From Squalus acanthias (lineage: Eukaryota): a stretch of DNA of 64,000 bases. Of the stretch, positions 1 to 33,500 are shown in pieces. The notes under the pieces are model-generated. The model was not told the origin of the DNA. It worked only from the letters and a program-made list of their open reading frames with translations, and made no database searches. Positions within the stretch are counted from its first letter, which is position 1. Every line of letters begins with the position of its first letter. The DNA is taken from assembly GCA_030390025.1 (NCBI GenBank), contig JASTWF010000322.1, forward strand, positions 372,001 through 436,000. Reading direction: 5' to 3'. Position numbers and translations under genes: made by a program.

Positions 1-104
1 GATTCTGAGTCGGCCATTCGGCCCCTCGAGCCTGCTCTGCCATTCAATGAGATCATAATGAGAAGTCGCACAACACCAGGTTATAGTCCAACAGATTTAT
101 TTAC

Positions 105-145
105 AATTACAAGCTTTCGGAGCGCTGCTCCTTCGTCAGGTAAAG
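105..145 (-). ncRNA. Minimal hammerhead-ribozyme-like motif in Penelope pLTR
   Basis: Minus strand reads CCTGACGA-AGGAGC-AGC-GCTCC-GAAA-GCTTGTA: CUGAnGA core, stem II GGAGC/GCTCC, GAAA, palindromic AAGCTT. Confidence 0.65.
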
Positions 146-427
146 GTACAATGAGGGAATCTACAGTATTACACAGTATATAAACACAAAAAGCAATTTG
201 TCTGCAGAGATACAATCTTTCAGGGAGTCCTTACATCAAAGACACACCAGAGCACAGCCAAGACAATGAGGTGGGGTCACAGGGGGTCCAACGTGTCAAA
301 TCCTGCCGTCTGCAGTTGAGCTTCTAACCTTTTTTTTTGTGTTTTTTTTATTTTTTAAAAACTGGAAAGACAGACAACGATGTCGAGTCACGTTCTGTAG
401 CGTGACATAAATTCCCTCATTGTACCT

Positions 428-466
428 TTACCTGAGGAAGGGGCGACAGCTCCGAAAGCTGGTAAT
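428..466 (+). ncRNA. Minimal hammerhead-ribozyme-like motif in Penelope pLTR
   Basis: CCTGAGGA-AGGGGC-GACA-GCTCC-GAAA-GCTGGTA. Confidence 0.55.
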
Positions 467-544
467 TTTAAATAGATCTGTTGGACTATAACCTGGTGTT
501 GTGCGACTTCTCATTCAGGTTATAGTCCAACAGTTTTATTTGAA

Positions 545-582
545 ATTACGAGCTTTCGGAGCGCTGCTCCTTCATCAGGTAC
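545..582 (-). ncRNA. Minimal hammerhead-ribozyme-like motif in Penelope pLTR
   Basis: Minus strand CCTGATGA-AGGAGC-AGC-GCTCC-GAAA-GCTCGTA. Confidence 0.6.
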
Positions 583-680
583 AGTGAGGGAATACAAATC
601 GGTTACACAGTATATATAGACAGAACAATGTGTCTGCAGAGATACAATCCGTCAGGGAGGCATTACATCAAGGACACATT

Positions 681-1445
681 GGCCCAAAAATTAGACCTAA
701 TACGCGAGAGTACGCACTGTGTACTCACCCATATTCGGTCCCGAAGTGCCGGTTTCCTGCATGCACTGCGCAAGCGCGGGAAACCGGCACTTCGGGTATT
801 GCGAAGGGGGCGGTTCCTAAGTGAACCGCGTGCGCGCTACAGGTTGCGCGCACGCAGTGCAGTTAGTTTTTTTTCAGGTTTGAACGCGAGGGTAAGTGTT
901 GAAGATTTTACACACAAAGAAAGCAGGCGTAAGACCCCCTTTTAACAAGGTAAGTAGTTAATTAAGTATTATTTTAAAATTTTTTCAACAGGTTTATCTT
1001 TTTTAGAGACTTTAAAGAAAGGTAAGTTTATTTTTATAACTTTTAAAAAGAATTAAAACTTTTTCAAAAATTTAAATTTTTGTTTAAAGTGGTTAATTTA
1101 TTTAACTATATCTATTTTATTAATGTGATGGCTTTTTTTTTCCATTTAATTGAGGTTTAGCTGTTCTTTTGGGGGCTTGTTGTATTCATAGCTTTGACAG
1201 CTCTTGCTGTCAAAACTATGAATGAAAGATGGTGTGCTGCCATTGGCTCTAACTGGCCCACGTGATCCCAGAGGTCGCATCGCACTAACTGCGCCTCTGG
1301 GACACGCACACACTGCGCGCCGGTACCAGGGAGAGGCCCAGGAACTGAAGTTCGTGTGGGCCAAAACCATAAAGGCAGGCGCGGAGTGCGATATCGCGGG
1401 GGATCCTTACCCCCGTGGCAAGCCTCCGAGTCAAATTTCTGGGCC
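681..1445. mobile_element. Non-autonomous DNA transposon (MITE), PIF/Harbinger-like
   Basis: Left end GGCCCAAAAATTAGAC versus reverse complement of right end GGCCCAGAAATTTGAC (14/16). The match extends 5 bp outward (ACATT/AATGT). CpG-rich arms, very AT-rich core, no coding capacity. Confidence 0.65.
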
Positions 1446-1589
1446 AATGTCTTCCTGACTGACCTGGTTGGATTTGATTGCCGAGATTATCTCTCTGCCG
1501 AGGTGTGATAAAGGGCAGTCAGAAAGATTAACTGTAGTCACCTGGCAGTGTTCTCTGACTATATAGGCTGTGCCCATTTGTATTTCTTC

Positions 1590-1688
1590 ACTTCACCTGA
1601 CAAATAAAGCTGTTGGACTATAACCTGGTGTTGTGCGACTTCTCACTTTTGTCCAACCCCAGTCCAACACTGGCATCTCCGCATCATT
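1590..1688 (+). mobile_element. Penelope pLTR fragment with the hammerhead core deleted
   Basis: CCTGAC joins directly to AAATAAAGCTGTTGGACTATAACCTGGTGTTGTGCGACTTCTCAC...CCAACACTGGCATCTCCGCATCA. Confidence 0.7.
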
Positions 1689-2075
1689 GAATATACTCAA
1701 CGACTGAGCCTCCACAGCCCTCTGGGGCAGAGAATTCCAAAGATTCACCGCCCTCTGAGTGAAGAAATTCCTCCTCATCTCAGTCCTAAATGGCCGACCC
1801 CTTATCCTGAGACTGTGACCCCTGGTTCTAGACTCTCCAGCCAGGGGGAAACAGCCTCTCAGCATCTCCCCTGTCAATCCCCCTCAGAATCTTGTATGTT
1901 TCAATGAGATCACCTCTCATTCTTCTAAACTCCAGAGAGTATCAGCCCAATCTACTCAATCTCTCCTCATAGGACAACCCTCACATCCCAGGGATCAATC
2001 TAGTGAACCTTCGTTGCACCGCCTCCAAGGCAAGTATATCCTTCCTTAGATAAGGAGACCAAAACTGTGCACAAG
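1686..2075 (-). mobile_element. CR1-type LINE ORF2 3' fragment
   Basis: RTRGHSLRIRGRPFRTEMRRNFFTQRAVNLWNSLP motif. Confidence 0.9.
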
Positions 2076-2079
2076 TCCA

Positions 2080-2720
2080 AAGAGACTTGGGGGAGGTCCA
2101 GGTACAAAGATCATTAAAATGTCATGAACAGGTACAGAAAATAATCAGAATGTCTAATGGAAAGTTGGCCTTTGTATCTAGAGGACTAGAATACAAGGGG
2201 GTAGAAGTTCTGCTGCAGCTGTACAAAGCCCTGGTTAGACCTCACCTGGAGCACCGGGAGCAGTTCTGGGCACCACACCTTAGGAAGGATATATTGGCCT
2301 TGGAGGGAGTGCAGCGGAGATTTACCAGAATGATACCCGCGCTCCAAGGGTTAAGTTACGAGGAGCAATTACACAAACTAGGGTCGTGTTCCCTGGAATT
2401 TAGAAGGTTAAGGGGCGATCTGATCAAAGTTTTCAGGATATTGATAGATTCCGGTTAAACAAAGGTATTAAGGGATATGGGGCAAAGGCAGGTCTATGGA
2501 GTTAGGTCGCACATCAGCCCATGATCTCATTGAATGGCGGAACAGGCTCGAGGGGGCTGAATGGGCCTCCTCCTGTTCCTGTGTAACAGGCTCGAGGGGC
2601 TGAATGGGCCTCCTCCTGTTCCTGTGTAACAGGCTCGAGGGGGCTGAATGGGCCTCCTCCTGTTCCTGTGTAACAGGCTCGAGGGGCTGAATGGGCCTCC
2701 TCCTGTTCCTGTGTTCCTGT
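2080..2720 (+). mobile_element. CR1-type LINE 3' fragment ending in a 43-44 bp tandem array (about 2540-2715)
   Basis: [11 protein letters not shown]...LEGVQRRFTRMIP...RRLRGDLI. 3' UTR unit AACAGGCTCGAGGGGCTGAATGGGCCTCCTCCTGTTCCTGTGT about 4 times. Confidence 0.9.
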
Positions 2721-2841
2721 GCTTGTGGTGAAACGCACCTCGCACTCAATCGCGGAGGAAACAGCACAGAATTTCTCCCGGCATAAGTCTTATTCGGATC
2801 ACAACTTGATACAGTAAAAGGTTCGAGCTCTTGCCTCAGTG

Positions 2842-3022
2842 TCAGTCGTGGCTCAGTGGGTAGTGCTCTAACATCTCTGAGTCAGAAGGTCATGGGTCCG
2901 AGTCCCACGCCAGAGACTTGAGCCCCATAATCCAGGCCCACACTCCCCGGTGCCAGTACTGAGGGAGTGCTGCACTGTCGGAGGTGCCGTCTTTCAGATG
3001 AGACATTAATCTGAGGCCCCGT
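2842..3022 (+). mobile_element. Deu-domain SINE (SacSINE1-like), 5' part with tRNA-derived head
   Basis: A-box TGGCTCAGTGG and B-box-like GGTCCGAGTCC, then the body shared with the other copies. Confidence 0.75.
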
Positions 3023-3024
3023 TG

Positions 3025-4110
3025 AGAGCGGCGAGGGGCCATGGAGGGATTTGAACAGTAGGATGAGAATTGTTGGGGCTGGAGGAGTTTAGAGATAGGG
3101 AGGGGGCGAGAGTCATGGAGGGATTTGAACAGGAGGATGAGAATTGTAGGGGCTGGAGGAGGTTACAGAGATAGGGAGGGGGCGAGGGCCATGGAGGGAT
3201 TTGAACAGGAGGATGAGAATTGTAGGGCTGGAGGAGGTTACAGAGATAGGGAGGGGGCGAGGGCCATGGAGGGATTTGAACAGGAGGATGAGAATTGTAG
3301 GGCTGGAGGAGGTTACAGAGATAGGGAGGGGGCGAGGGGCCATGGAGGGATTTGAACAGGAGGAAGAGAATTGTAGGGGCTGGAGGAGGTTACAGAGATA
3401 GGGAGGGGGCGAGGGCCATGGAGGGATTTGAACAGGAGGATGAGAATTGTAGGGGCTGGAGGAGGTTACAGAGATAGGGAGGGGGCGAGGGCCATGGAGG
3501 GATTTGAACAGGAGGATGAGAATTGTAGGGGCTGGAGGAGGTTACAGAGATAGGGAGGGGGCGAGGGCCATGGAGGGATTTGAACAGGAGGATGAGAATT
3601 GTAGGGGCTGGAGGAGGTTACAGAGATAGGGAGGGGGCGAGGGGCCATGGAGGGATTTGAACAGGAGAATGAGAATTTTGAAATCGAGGCGTTGCCGGAC
3701 CGGGAGCCAGTGTAGGTCAGCGAGCACAGGGGGTGATGGGTGAACGGGCCTCGGTGCGAGTTAGGACACGGGGGCAGCAGGAGTTTAGGATGAGCTGATG
3801 GTTACGGAGGGTGGAATGTTGGAGGCCGGCCAGGAGAGCGTCGGAATAGTCAAGTCTAGAGGTAACAAAGGGCAGGGATGAGGGCTTCAGCAGCGGATGA
3901 GCTGAGGCAGGGGCGGAGACGGGCGATGTTACGGAGGTGGAAGTAGGTGGTCTTTGTGATGGAGCGGAGATGGGGCTCGGAATCTGAACCCGAGCTCGAA
4001 TAGGACACCAAGGTTGCGAACAGTGTGGTTCAGCCTCAGACAGATGTTCGGGAGAAGGGTGGAGTGGGTGGCTGGGGCAACGGAGTTAGTGGCGGGGAAC
4101 CGAAACCTCC
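3025..4110 (-). mobile_element. L2 LINE fragment containing a 75-77 bp tandem array (about 3030-3680)
   Basis: Minus-strand LADLHWLPVRQRLDFKILILLFKSLHG...PPYL is the L2 ORF2 C-terminus. Unit GGAGGGATTTGAACAGGAGGATGAGAATTGTAGGGGCTGGAGGAGGTTACAGAGATAGGGAGGGGGCGAGGGCCAT. Confidence 0.85.
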
Positions 4111-4214
4111 ATCAAAAATCCCAGAGATATTTCCTCGGAGATCCAAGGTGGCAATAGTCTTGGTTTCAAAGCACCTTAATTCTCCCCCGTTCAGTAACTG
4201 CTAATGTTTGCTGT

Positions 4215-5150
4215 CATAGAATCATAGAAAGTTACAGCACAGAAGGAGGCCATTCGGCCCATCGTGTCCATGCCGGCCAACAAAGAGCGATCCGCCCTAT
4301 TCCCACTTCCCAGCTCTTGGTCCGTAGCCCTGTGGGTTACGACACTTCAAGCGCATATCCAAGTACTGTTTAAATGCGATGAGGGTCTCTGTCTCTACCA
4401 CCCTTTCAGACAGTGAGTTCCAGACCCCCACCACCCTCTGGGTGAAGAAATTTCCCCTCAAATCCCCTCTAAACCTTCCCCCAATTACTTTAAATCTGTG
4501 CCCCCTGGTTATTGACCCCTCTGCTGAGGGAAATAGGTCCTTCCTCTCCACTCTATCTGGGCCCCTCATCATTTTACACACCTCAATTAAATCTCCCCTC
4601 AGCCTCCTCTGTTCCAAAGTAAACAACCCCAGCCTCTCCAATCTTTCCTCATTGCTAAAATTCCCCAGCCCAGGCAACATCCTGGTAACTCTCTTCTGCA
4701 CCCTCTCTAGTGCGATCACATCCCTCCTGTAATGTGGTGACCAGAACTGCACGCAGTATTCTAGCTGAGGCCTAACTAGTGTTTTATACAGTTCAAGCAT
4801 AACCCCCCCTGCTCTTGTATTCTATGCCACGGCTAATAAAGGCAAGCATTCCGTATGCCTTCTTAACCACCTTATCTACCTGGCCTGCTACCTTCAGGGA
4901 TCTGTGGACATGCACTCCAAGGTCCCTTTGTTCCTCTACACTTCTCAGTGTCCGACAATTTAATGTGTGTTCCCTCGCCTCGTTCGCCCTCCCCAAATGC
5001 ATTACCTCACACTTCTCCGGGTCGAATTCCATTTGCCACTGTTCTGCCCACCCGACCAGCTCATCTGATATCTTCCTGCAGTCTACTGCCGCCTTTCTCT
5101 TCATCATCAACCGCACGGCCGATTTTACTATCATCTGCCAAACTTCTCAA
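4215..5150 (-). mobile_element. CR1-type LINE 3' fragment
   Basis: [49 protein letters not shown] and a 3' tail; frameshifted. Confidence 0.92.
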
Positions 5151-5627
5151 TCATGCCCCCCTAACATTCGAATCTTTGAAACTTAGGGCGGCTGCCTCTC
5201 TCTCTCTCTCTCTCTCCCTGTATGGGCTCGGTCCCTCCGACCTCTGCCTTTTTAATTCCCGGGCTCCCTGCGTCCCTTCCCCCAGCTCCGTGGCCCCCTG
5301 TCCTTTGTGCTACTCTCCTTGCTGAGGATCCCGCCCATTCCCCCCCTGCTGTTCTGCTTAGGCGGAACAATAGTTCGGCCAACTTCTCCTCCCCCTGACG
5401 TTTCCTTCCCGCCCCCCCCACCACCACCACCACCGAGTCATCGCCTGATCCCTCTCCATTGGGCCGTACCTCCTCACCCCAGGAAGTGTTTCATCCTGTG
5501 ACGGTCTGCTGCTCTCTCGCATTCCACAGGGTCATAGAGGCTGTCGGATGAGCAAGAAATCCAAACCAGTCACAACACAGGACGCAGATTTTGAACTGGA
5601 CCCAGCCCCATAAATCTTCTTTGCATT

Positions 5628-5945
5628 CACAGAATCACAGAATCCCCACAGTGCAGATAGAGGCCATTTCGGCCCATCGAGCCTGCACCAACACATATCC
5701 CATCCTATCCCCGTAACCCCACGTATTTAATCCCCCTAACACTAAGGGTCAATTTATCATAGCCAAATCAACCTAACCCGCACATCTTTGGACTGTGGGA
5801 GGAAACCGGAGCACCCGGAGGAAACCCACGCAGACACGGGGAGAATGTGCAAACTCCACACAGACAGTCACCCGAGGCCGGGTTCGAACCCGGGTCCCTG
5901 GCACTGTGAGGGAACAGTGCTAACCACTATGCCACCGTGTTGCCC
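5628..5945 (-). mobile_element. HE1-like V-SINE
   Basis: V-domain GGAGGAAACCGGAGCACCCGGAGGAAACCCACGCAGACACGGGGAGAATGTGCAAACTCCACACAGACAG; tRNA-like head at the 5945 end; CR1-like tail. Confidence 0.85.
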
Positions 5946-5949
5946 GCAT

Positions 5950-6070
5950 TGTTCCATGGAAGCTCAGCGTAAGCTCGAGGAACAGCACCTCATCTTTCGT
6001 TTAGGCACTTTACAGCCTTCTGGGCTCAACATCGAGTTCAACAATTTCAGATCATAACCTCGGCCCCCAC
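5950..6070 (+). mobile_element. Fragment of a second Penelope-like family (GIY-YIG C-terminus)
   Basis: EAQRKLEEQHLIFRLGTLQPSGLNIEF matches the PLE endonuclease terminal E...L.T..P.GLN pattern. Confidence 0.65.
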
Positions 6071-6129
6071 CACATATGTATATGAGAAGTTGCACAACAC
6101 CAGGTTATAGTCCAACAGTTTTATTTGAA

Positions 6130-6166
6130 ATCACGAGCTTTCAGAGCGCTGCTCCTTCGTCAGGTC
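6130..6166 (-). ncRNA. Minimal hammerhead-ribozyme-like motif in inverted pLTR
   Basis: Minus strand CCTGACGA-AGGAGC-AGC-GCTCT-GAAA-GCTCGTG. Confidence 0.55.
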
Positions 6167-6703
6167 TACCTGATACGTTGCAGGAAAGGATGCCCCGGAG
6201 CATGGTACATCGGCGAGACCATGCAGACACTGAGACAACGTATGAACGGACACCGCGCAACAATCGCCAGGCAGGAGGGTTGCCTCCCAGTCGGGGAACA
6301 CTTCAGCAGTCAAGGACATTCAGCCTCGGATCTGCGGGTTAGCGTTCTCCAAGGCGGCCTTCGAGACACACGACAGCGCAAAATCATCGAGCAGAAACTT
6401 ATAGCCAAGTTCCGCACCCATGAGGACGGCCTCGACCGGGATCTCGGGTTCATGTCACGCTACAGAATGTGACTCGACATCATTGTCTGTCTTTCCAGTT
6501 TTTAAAAAACAAACGCAAAAAAATCCCCAAAACAAACACTGCAGACAGCAGGATTTGACACGTTGGACCCCCTGGGACACATCTCATTGTCTTGGCTGTG
6601 CTCTTGGTGTGTCTTTGATGTAAGGACACCTTCCCTGAAAGATTGTATCTCTGCAGTTTCTGTGTTTATATTCTGTGAACTTTTGTAGATTCACTCATTG
6701 TAA

Positions 6704-6745
6704 CTTTACCTGACGAAGGGGCAGCAGCTCCGAAAGCTCGTAATT
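6704..6745 (+). ncRNA. Minimal hammerhead-ribozyme-like motif in 3' pLTR
   Basis: CCTGACGA-AGGGGC-AGCA-GCTCC-GAAA-GCTCGTA downstream of the GIY-YIG ORF. Confidence 0.6.
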
Positions 6746-6872
6746 TTAAATAAATCTGTTGGACTATAACCTGGTGTTGTGTGACTTCTCACTTTTGTCC
6801 ACCCCAGTCCAACACCGGCATCTCCGCATCATTTCAGGAGTGAAGTTAGGAAACACTTCTACACACAAAGGG

Positions 6873-7480
6873 TGAACAGGAGGATGAGAATTGTAGGGGC
6901 TGGAGGAGGTTACAGAGATTACATGGGGGCGAGGGCCATGGAGGGATTTGAAAAGGAGGATGAGAATTGTAGGGGCTGGAGGAGGTTACAGAGATAGGGA
7001 GGGGGTGAGTGCCATGGAGGGATTTGAACAGGAGGATGAGAATTGTTGGGGCTGGAGGAGGTTACAGAGATAGGGAGGGGGCGAGTGCCATGGAGGGATT
7101 TGAACAGGAGGATGAGAATTGTTGGGGCTGGAGGAGGTTACAGAGATAGGGAGGGGGGCGAGGGCCATGGAGGGATTTGAACAGGAGGATGAGAATTGTT
7201 GGGGCTGGAGGAGGTTACAGAGATAGGGAGGGGGCGAGGGCCATGGAGGGATTTGAACCGGAGGATGAGAATTGTAGGGGCTGGAGGAGGTTACAGAGAT
7301 AGGGAGGGGGCGAGGGGCCATGGAGGGATTTGAACAGGAGGATGAGAATTGTAGGGGCTGGAGGAGGTTACAGAGATAGGGAGTGAGCGAGGGGCCATGG
7401 AGGGATCTGAACAGGAGGATGAGAATTGTAGGGCTGGAGGAGGTTACAGAGATAGGGAGGAGGGCAAGGTGTCATGGAGG
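6873..7480 (-). repeat. L2-derived 76-77 bp tandem array
   Basis: About 8 copies of the same unit as at 3030-3680. Confidence 0.9.
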
Positions 7481-7512
7481 CCCCAGTCCAACACCGGCAT
7501 CTCCACATCATA

Positions 7513-8140
7513 AATCTTCTTCTTCTTAGGCAGTCCCTCGGAACCGAGGATGACTTGCTTCCACACTAAAAATGAGTTCTCAGGTGACTGATGAGTCCAA
7601 TGCGGGACCTACAGTCTCTGTCACAGGTGGGGCAGACGGTGGTTGAAGGGGCGGGTGGGTGGGGTGCTTGGGTTGACGTGCGCTCCTTGCGCTGTTTGCA
7701 CTTGGCTTCCGCTTGCTCCCGGCGAAGAGACTCGAGGTGTTCGGCGCCTTCCCGGATGCTTCTCCTCCACTTTGTGCTCTGGTCTTGGGCCAGGGATTCC
7801 CAGGTGTCGGTGGGGATGTTGCACTTTTTCAAGGAGGCTTTGAGGGTGTCCTTGAAGCGTTTCCTCTGCCCACCTGGGGCTCTCTTGCCGTGCCGGAGCT
7901 CCGAGTAGAGCACTTGTTTTGGGAGTCTTGTATCGGGCATGCGGATAATGTGGCCCGTCCATCGGAGCTGATCGAGCGTGGTCAAAGCTTCGATGCTGGG
8001 GATGTTGGCCTGAGCGAGAACACTGACGTTGGTGCGCCTATCCTGCCAATGGATCTACAGGATCTTGCGGAGGCAGCGTTGGTGGTACCTCTCCAGTGCT
8101 TTGAGGTGCCTGCTGTACATGGTCCATGTCTCTGAGGCAT
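7513..8140 (-). mobile_element. RTE/BovB-like LINE 3' fragment
   Basis: QLRWTGHIIRMPDTRLPKQVLYSEL...GGQRKRFKDTLKASL...CPTCDRDCRSRIGLISHLRTH and a (GAA)n tail. Confidence 0.9.
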
Positions 8141-32239: not shown

Positions 32240-33500
32240 GGGTAAATTATGAGGAGAGATGTCACAAATTTAGGGTTGTATTCCCTGGAATTTCAAAGGT
32301 AAAGGGATCAAAGTTTTCAAGGTATTCCGCGGAACTGTGAGGGCAGAGAGAGAGAAACTATTTCCGCTGGTTGGGGATTCTAGGACTAGGGGGCATAGTC
32401 TAAAAATTAGAGCCAGACCTTTCAGGAGTGAAGTGAGGAAACACTTCTACACACAAAGGGTGAACAGGAGGATGAGAATTGTAGGGGCTGGAGGAGGTTA
32501 CAGAGATAGGGAGGGTGCAAGGGGCCATGGAGGGATTTGAACAGGAGGATGAGAATTGTAGGGCTGGAGGAGGTTACAGAGATAGGGAGGGGGCGAGGGG
32601 CCATGGAGGGATTTGAACAGGAGGATGAGAATTGTAGGGCTGGAGGAGTTTACAGAGATAGGGAGGGTGCAAGGGGCCATGGAGGGATTTGAACAGGAGG
32701 ATGAGAATTGTAGGGCTGGAGGAGGTTACAGAGATAGGGAGGGGGCGAGGGGCCATGGAGGGATTTGAACAGGAGGATGAGAATTGTAGGGCTGGAGGAG
32801 GTTACAGAGATAGGGAGGGGGCGAGGGCCATGGAGGGATTTGAACAGGAGGATGAGAATTGTAGGGCTGGAGGAGTTTACAGAGATAGGGAGGGGGCGAG
32901 GGGCCATGGAGGGATTTGAACAGGAGGATGAGAATTGCAGGGGCTGGAGGAGGTTACAGAGATAGGGAAGGGGCGAGGGCCATGGAGGGATTTGAAGAGG
33001 AGGATGAGAATTGTAGGGGCTGGAGGAGGTTACAGAGATAGGGAAGGGGCGAGGGCCATGGAGGGATTTGAAGAGGAGGATGAGAATTGTAGGGGCTGGA
33101 GGAGGTTACAGAGATAGGGAGGGGGCGAGGGCCATGGAGGGATTTGAAGAGGAGGATGAGAATTGTAGGGGCTGGAGGAGGTTACAGAGATAGGGAGGGG
33201 GCGAGGGCCATGAAGGGATTTGAACAGGAGGATGAGAATCGTAGGGGCTGGAGGAGGTTACAGAGATAGGGAGGGGGCGAGGGCCATGAAGGGATTTGAA
33301 CAGGAGGATGAGAATCGTAGGGGCTGGAGGAGGTTACAGAGATAGGGAGGGGGGCGAGCACAGGGGGTGATGGGTGAACGGGACTCGGTGCGAGTTAGGA
33401 CACGGGTGCAGCAGGAGTTTAAGATGAGCTGATGGTTACGGAGGGTGGAAGATGGGAGGCCGGCCAGGAGAGCGTCGGAATAGTCGGGAGTCTGGAGCGG
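32240..33500. mobile_element. CR1 fragment (+) joined to L2-derived 75-77 bp array and L2 fragment (-)
   Basis: EKLFPLVGDSRTRGHSLKI, then about 12 array units at 32460-33355 and L2 continuation. Confidence 0.85.

Follow-up and report, generated by a model that had tools for sequence, protein, structure and literature searches.

The present study concerns a stretch of 64,000 nucleotides from Squalus acanthias (assembly GCA_030390025.1, contig JASTWF010000322.1, positions 372,001 to 436,000 of the forward strand), hereafter the window, and five hammerhead ribozyme motifs in copies of a Penelope-like retrotransposon near its start. These copies form two compound insertions, each built of 5'-truncated halves joined head to head, with a 40-nt tail on one half. 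The motifs occupy 107-143 (copy 1, minus strand), 428-465 (copy 2, plus), 547-581 (copy 3, minus), 6133-6165 (copy 4, minus) and 6706-6743 (copy 5, plus), all within a few bases of where the initial annotation had placed them; their C3 positions are 139, 432, 578, 6163 and 6710, respectively. CUGANGA with the optional extra nucleotide before stem II was present in all five. Stem II was 5 bp throughout, as annotated, but it is preceded by one extra A that had been omitted. Its G10.1-C11.1 pair was found in four copies; the claim that the core and the stem II pairing are kept therefore needs a correction for copy 4, which has C11.1 replaced by U and reads GCUCU (a G10.1-U11.1 wobble) instead of GCUCC. 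Loop II was 3 nt in copy 1 and 4 nt in copies 2 and 5. Stem I was 4 bp in copies 1, 2 and 5 and 3 bp in copy 3, and only 2 bp were left in copy 4, where it is cut by an insertion junction.

We coded the minimal-hammerhead descriptor of Fig. S7 of Cervera and De la Peña (PMC4209133) and a relaxed version in which position 17 is unrestricted and stem I may be as short as 2 bp. The limits taken for minimal hammerheads are 3-7 bp for stem II, 3-10 nt for its loop and at least 3 bp for stem I. Copies 1, 3 and 5 and nothing else in the window matched the published form, and the relaxed form added copies 2 and 4. CUGANGA alone occurred 18 times in the window, and only the five cores passed the relaxed descriptor. 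Neither version matched in any of 300 dinucleotide-preserving shuffles made in 2-kb blocks, the five cores being copies of one repeat family and not independent sightings. No Rfam hammerhead family matched (whole window at the gathering score; 1-7500 at E values up to 10), as would be expected of a form without a closed stem III; canonical type-I hammerheads have a 6-bp stem I and a contact between loops I and II, and with stem I at most 4 bp these motifs are not of that type. A 19-nt anchor outside the hammerhead had no match in prokaryote genomes and viral contigs, and a scan of metagenomes yielded a single weak locus of 18 residues, which was set aside. We concluded that the five motifs are almost certainly minimal type-I hammerheads (min-HHR) and belong to the 3' terminal repeat of a shark Penelope-like retrotransposon that is abundant and carries an endonuclease. 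The initial annotation of inverted pairs of such hammerheads in Penelope terminal repeats was thus supported by the descriptor and by the endonuclease context.

Stem I is formed by the nucleotides immediately 5' of CUGA and those that follow GCU-N, and the register is therefore G12 A13 A14 A15.1 G C U16.1 N17. Stem III is a single A15.1-U16.1 pair around two bases, and GAAANNUH carries the 4-nt palindrome AGCU in all five copies. The proposal of a short palindromic stem III is in agreement with this finding; such a stem could form only in a dimer. Position 17, the cleavage-site nucleotide, is U, G, C, C and C in copies 1 to 5 (at 111, 461, 550, 6135 and 6739). The U/C/G variation noticed after GCU is real, but belongs to this position and not to stem III; H17 is present in four copies, and copy 2 fails the published descriptor through its G17. 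That descriptor requires gaaannuh, and the G-C-U-H form occurs in five of its 56 alignment rows, Chrysemys picta, Adineta vaga (2), Philodina roseola and Schistosoma mansoni (1) among them; the S. mansoni (3) row has a G-C-U-N ending with G17 (PMC4209133). G17 is described as strongly impairing minimal hammerheads (PMC3884650). Judging from these alignments, the G-C-U-H core was already published in 2014 and is not a new form.

A C-terminal fragment of a GIY-YIG endonuclease lies at 6164-6472 (plus strand), without a start codon and without a reverse transcriptase. Its segment 6164-6463 encodes 100 residues that are 94% identical to residues 543-642 of P0024, a 643-residue reverse transcriptase-endonuclease protein named from the shark Heptranchias perlo, and the other named protein matches are mostly from sharks. 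The Pfam GIY-YIG match (E 7e-4) falls short of the family cut-off. Copy 5 begins 238 nt past the stop codon of this fragment and not directly downstream of it, as had been stated. In P0024, the reverse transcriptase domain contains DKG and YIDD, and a CX4CXXC linker precedes the GIY-YIG domain. A CX2-5CXXC linker, which according to Craig et al. (PMC8557442) marks Neptune and Nematis, was found in 29 of the 35 relatives long enough to show it, P0024 included; the region lies upstream of the 5' truncation in the window copy and was thus read from relatives only. The carrier appears to be of the Neptune/Nematis type, as placed by motifs in its relatives and not by a tree. The reverse transcriptase of the family was not found in the window by tblastn with four full-length queries, each of which gave one match, the endonuclease fragment.

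Two neighbouring reading frames were also considered. The one running from stop to stop from 6086 arose by chance fusion, its first 26 codons being antisense copy 4. The short frame at 5945-6057, which ends 25 nt before the leftmost base of the right insertion, gave nothing in BLASTP or Pfam, and its reading as the end of another Penelope endonuclease is unproven (E 0.39 to a profile of 15 relatives). The open frame at 7566-8054 (minus strand) has a C2H2 zinc finger at its end (Pfam E 9e-4), similar to the C-terminus of a non-LTR (long terminal repeat) retrotransposon. The endonuclease fragment also occurs in many shark gene models, P0027, P0034, P0039, P0045, P0060 and others, including XRCC5, PPP1R12A-like, septin 5a, FAM210B and CYP2C31-like isoforms; it is either an exonised repeat or an annotation artefact.

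The left insertion begins with piece 1 (59-411, minus strand), a 5'-truncated 3' end comprising the last endonuclease codons, the 3' untranslated region (UTR) and hammerhead copy 1, without a tail; it is 85% identical to 6449-6791 over 359 columns. Piece 2 (408-513, plus), also without a tail, is its inverted partner, with the head-to-head junction at 408-411. Piece 3 (516-678, minus) is the 3' UTR of a diverged subfamily, 78% identical to 6608-6773; its 3' end, which abuts piece 2, lies 18 nt inside the usual boundary. Piece 6 (1554-1686, plus) is the head-to-head partner of piece 3, has its tail at 1646-1686 and has lost its hammerhead by a deletion between CUGA and AATAAA; its 5' part may extend as far back as 1446. 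Between pieces 3 and 6, exactly at the Penelope inversion junction, lies an insert of 765 bp (681-1445) that has inverted repeats both at its termini and internally. It has several internal palindromes; we infer that it resembles a miniature inverted-repeat transposable element, and no second copy was found within the window.

In the right insertion, piece 4 (6083-6165, minus) and piece 5 (6164-6831, plus) are joined head to head, and the junction cuts inside stem I of copy 4. The 3' UTR or pseudo-LTR of piece 5 spans 6473-6791 (AATAAA at 6749-6754) and is followed by the optional 40-nt tail at 6792-6831. The tail is present on pieces 5 and 6 and absent from pieces 1, 2 and 4, which share one end point 40 nt short of the other two. 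To survey the family, public contigs from four of 20 listed runs were aligned to 6545-6860 at 80% likeness, which gave 7072, 1322, 2013 and 1429 contigs per run, with about 55% of run X5 covered. Loose contig ends cluster at 6832, at least 128 in run X5 and 19 in run X14. An inverted 5'-truncated copy and a tail of 30-40 bp are among the Penelope features described by Craig et al. (PMC8557442).

The flanks of the left block (59-1686) are collinear parts of one host repeat that resembles a long interspersed nuclear element. Since six sibling repeats in the window have 86-92 nt between the matching flanks (a seventh pairing gave 309), the block replaced approximately 90 bp without a target duplication. 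The host flank was identical to a sibling over only 114 nt and 95.9% identical over 387 nt. Elsewhere, an isolated 33-nt fragment of the tail occurs at 7480-7512, after a tandem array of a 76-bp unit that is found in two arrays (3050-3660 and 6873-7477). A contig end and a sibling at 32420 suggest that the junction of flank and array recurs elsewhere in the window. The assembly has a 200-base N gap at 60716-60915.

Across the contigs, variants reached at least 3% at seven of the 38 hammerhead positions (6706-6743). These comprised N7, two in loop II, position 17, a stem II change between G-U and A-U, a stem I change between U-A and U-G and, at the end of stem I, one change that breaks a pair. 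None was in the core (chance 0.038), and six of the seven fit the fold (simulated chance 0.004, or 0.013 with the loop counted once). At position 17, U made up approximately 87-91% of the depth. One-sided, pair-keeping changes at two pairs and changes at free positions dominated the common variants. This pattern gives mild support to constraint on the fold, and not to covariation.

Folding was computed with 25-nt flanks under an energy model that ignores the tertiary contacts of the core. Stem II formed with probabilities of 0.94-1.0 in copies 1, 2 and 5 and approximately 0.7 in copies 3 and 4. Stem I probabilities were 0.97-0.99 in copy 1, 0.74-0.77 in copy 5, 0.53-0.58 in copy 2, 0.32-0.34 in copy 3 and 0 in copy 4. 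It is possible to draw a strand-swapped dimer in which AGCU forms a 4-bp stem III. When the inverted partner was included in the same RNA, the stem II probability of copies 1 and 5 fell to 0.0, versus 0.96-0.97 for copy 5 without it. According to this model, read-through RNA at the locus is expected to form long hairpins in which copies 1 and 5 are buried.

We propose that the full-length parent RNA would carry one motif in each terminal repeat. A single motif could not close stem III; the two would swap strands, AGCU pairing with AGCU to form a 4-bp stem III, and the RNA would be cut slowly after position 17, probably with the help of the element's own protein. Cleavage would perhaps trim tandem transcripts. 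We consider this mechanism reasonably likely. Lünse, Weinberg and Breaker (RNA Biol.) are said to have described dimer cleavage of small Penelope hammerheads. The copies in the window are very likely inert passengers because none comes with the coding part, two are damaged, a sixth has been deleted and the read-through RNA would fold as a hairpin. For the whole explanation, namely, the min-HHR identity, the mechanism in the parent RNA and the inert locus, we estimate a probability of approximately 0.8.

The predicted folding agrees with the weak and helper-dependent activity in the literature, in which the Anolis protein aids cleavage and one of nine Xenopus dimers was active. In the cited part of PMC4209133, an S. 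mansoni family with the G-C-U ending showed no cleavage as a monomer and low cleavage as a dimer or trimer, and the cited passages on the Anolis element state that its hammerhead cleaves only with the element's protein (PMC11167929).

However, several observations weigh against this explanation. At -14.9 to -17.5 kcal/mol, the strand-swapped dimer gains nothing over two separate monomers. It also lies far above the cofold minimum of -28.1 to -33.9 kcal/mol, a fold where stem II strands of one molecule mispair with those of the other. The variation at the n position and in loop II, which the initial annotation had set against a kept pairing, is real, but two-sided (compensatory) changes numbered zero in nine pairs over the five copies and zero among the common contig variants; the structure is therefore not proven by covariation. 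The 40-nt tail is also without a listed variant, and low variation is thus not a peculiarity of the core. The indel table does not contain the one-base loop indel, and short contigs aligned to a single variant favour look-alikes. In the passages cited here, Anolis hammerhead mutants insert unimpaired in vitro (PMC11167929), and eight of nine Xenopus dimer elements are reported not to have cleaved.

One alternative is unlikely, yet survives better than any other: the motif is a true hammerhead by descent that no longer cleaves or matters, kept in a terminal segment that is conserved for protein binding, priming or polyadenylation. The insertion-competent Anolis mutants and the tail as invariant as the core both suit it, and the same Anolis passages report no RNA-seq ends at the cut site (PMC11167929). 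Naiads are described as spreading without hammerheads, and their authors raise parasitism. A G17 copy and a hammerhead-deleted copy also occur here in a young insertion site. However, the common variants avoid the core and mostly keep the pairing, and only U and C were found at position 17 at 3% or more in the four runs, which have differing organism codes. We prefer a hammerhead that would still act, slowly, in the parent RNA.

Alternatively, copies 3 and 1 could act together in cis, as a dimer within a host transcript of the locus; such a ribozyme would have been made by chance or co-opted. They lie on the same strand 439 nt apart, both are complete by the descriptor, and a mixed dimer with stem I of 3 and 4 bp can be drawn. 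This alternative is nevertheless very improbable: antisense copy 2 lies between them, the fold of 620-45 has copy 1 wholly paired in a long hairpin with a stem II probability of 0.0, and the local transcript is hypothetical.

Slightly less credible still is the non-canonical stem III that the initial annotation had inferred, six bases long (AAGCUU), which would make the hammerhead a new one. Copy 1 does have AAGCUU, and U is the commonest letter at the variable place in the public contigs. However, AAGCUU is present in copy 1 only and copies 3 to 5 read AAGCUC. This register would moreover pair the core nucleotide A14, place G at position 17 and break stem I, whereas the AGCU register given by stem I agrees with the published descriptor and alignment rows. 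Lastly, chance matches within a repeat are hardly conceivable: the motifs are one family and hence one event, CUGANGA alone is not enriched and Rfam gave no match, but the descriptor matched in none of the 300 shuffles, and the position after the endonuclease, the extra nucleotide before stem II, G10.1-C11.1 and the palindrome are features reported for Penelope hammerheads.

The min-HHR may also carry information on how the insertions arose. Copies 2 and 5 have G in stem II with a 4-nt loop, and copies 1, 3 and 4 have A with a 3-nt loop, a linked haplotype of a substitution plus an indel. Partner halves differed at 8 of 66 positions (copies 1 and 2) and 6 of 66 (copies 4 and 5), versus 3 of 65 for copies 3 and 4, which come from different insertions. 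Over a longer shared stretch, four of eight differences between copies 1 and 2 and six of eight between copies 4 and 5 were alleles common in the contigs, two of the latter six at a CpG. A test on counts only, at the host-flank divergence of 4.1%, gave binomial P values of 0.064 (1 and 2) and 0.023 (4 and 5). The count argument is weakened because the flanks diverge by 4.1% over 387 nt; since its P values are modest, the argument is carried by the shared haplotype.

Copy-back of the inverted half on the same template, as proposed in the self-priming model (PMC3846280), would leave the partner halves identical at birth. Their different haplotypes hint at two RNA templates per insertion. We tentatively suggest, at somewhat less than even odds, that two templates contributed to each head-to-head insertion: a dimeric Penelope protein would have made a double-strand cut, and each of the cut strands would have primed a different template. 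This reading fits the Anolis protein, which is reported to cut and extend both strands and for which a dimeric state is predicted (PMC11167929). Sequential insertion into an existing copy, which is a known habit, and gene conversion would look alike. If two templates are used, hammerhead haplotypes would be natural barcodes with which to test the Penelope insertion mechanism genome-wide. Templates with a dead (G17) or deleted hammerhead would also have been mobilised, and cleavage in cis would not be needed in vivo.

Earlier publications already cover the motif class, this precise core and its setting in the genome, and sharks only extend the list of hosts; as a ribozyme finding, the present result is of little weight. 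With its high copy number and its linked hammerhead haplotypes, the family lends itself to testing one template versus two cheaply by computation, and the 37-38-nt motif is a compact substrate for dimer and protein-assisted cleavage assays. Our literature search, which did not cover repeat databases, found no shark-specific description of a Penelope hammerhead.

Among known systems, the motifs resemble the metazoan min-HHR of PMC4209133, with Chrysemys picta bellii as the nearest row. In the cited part of that paper, the shared features are CUGANGA with the extra nucleotide, G10.1-C11.1, a 5-bp stem II, GAAA-G-C-U-H without a real stem III, a 4-bp stem I and AAUAAA shortly past the site. The turtle sequence differs in the letters of stems I and II and has a loop II of 7 nt versus 3-4 nt here, and no cartilaginous fish is among the 56 rows. 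Min-HHRSm1 of S. mansoni shares the G-C-U-H core end and is the sole assayed example in the cited passages (monomer inactive, dimer and trimer weak); unlike the shark motifs, it has a 7-bp stem II, belongs to the Cercyon family and has a flatworm host.

The carrier resembles Poseidon of Anolis carolinensis (Frangieh et al. 2024, PMC11167929), as far as the cited passages describe it, in its hammerhead within the pseudo-LTR and in a tail bounded by two reverse-transcription start points; AT-rich targets and the cutting and extension of both strands are also listed as likenesses. In contrast, the open reading frame of Poseidon starts inside the hammerhead, and the relatives of the shark family have the Neptune/Nematis CX2-5CXXC linker (PMC11167929, PMC8557442). 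Non-LTR retrozymes (Li, Clavereau and Pollet, bioRxiv 10.64898/2026.07.22.740005), which are reported for one chondrichthyan, likewise have type-I hammerheads derived from Penelope terminal repeats. However, the cited text describes them as direct tandem arrays with a complete hammerhead in each unit, whereas the neighbouring copies here are inverted and attached to element fragments. In architecture, the insertions resemble the head-to-head pseudo-LTR insertions of endonuclease-bearing Penelope elements described by Arkhipova et al. (2013, PMC3846280) and Craig et al. (2021, PMC8557442). They share with these, as the cited passages describe them, a 5'-truncated body, an inverted 5'-truncated partner, a tail on one end only and junctions at microhomologies. 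They differ in that target DNA was deleted, and not duplicated, at block 59-1686, and from the self-priming model of 2013 in that the partner halves carry different haplotypes.

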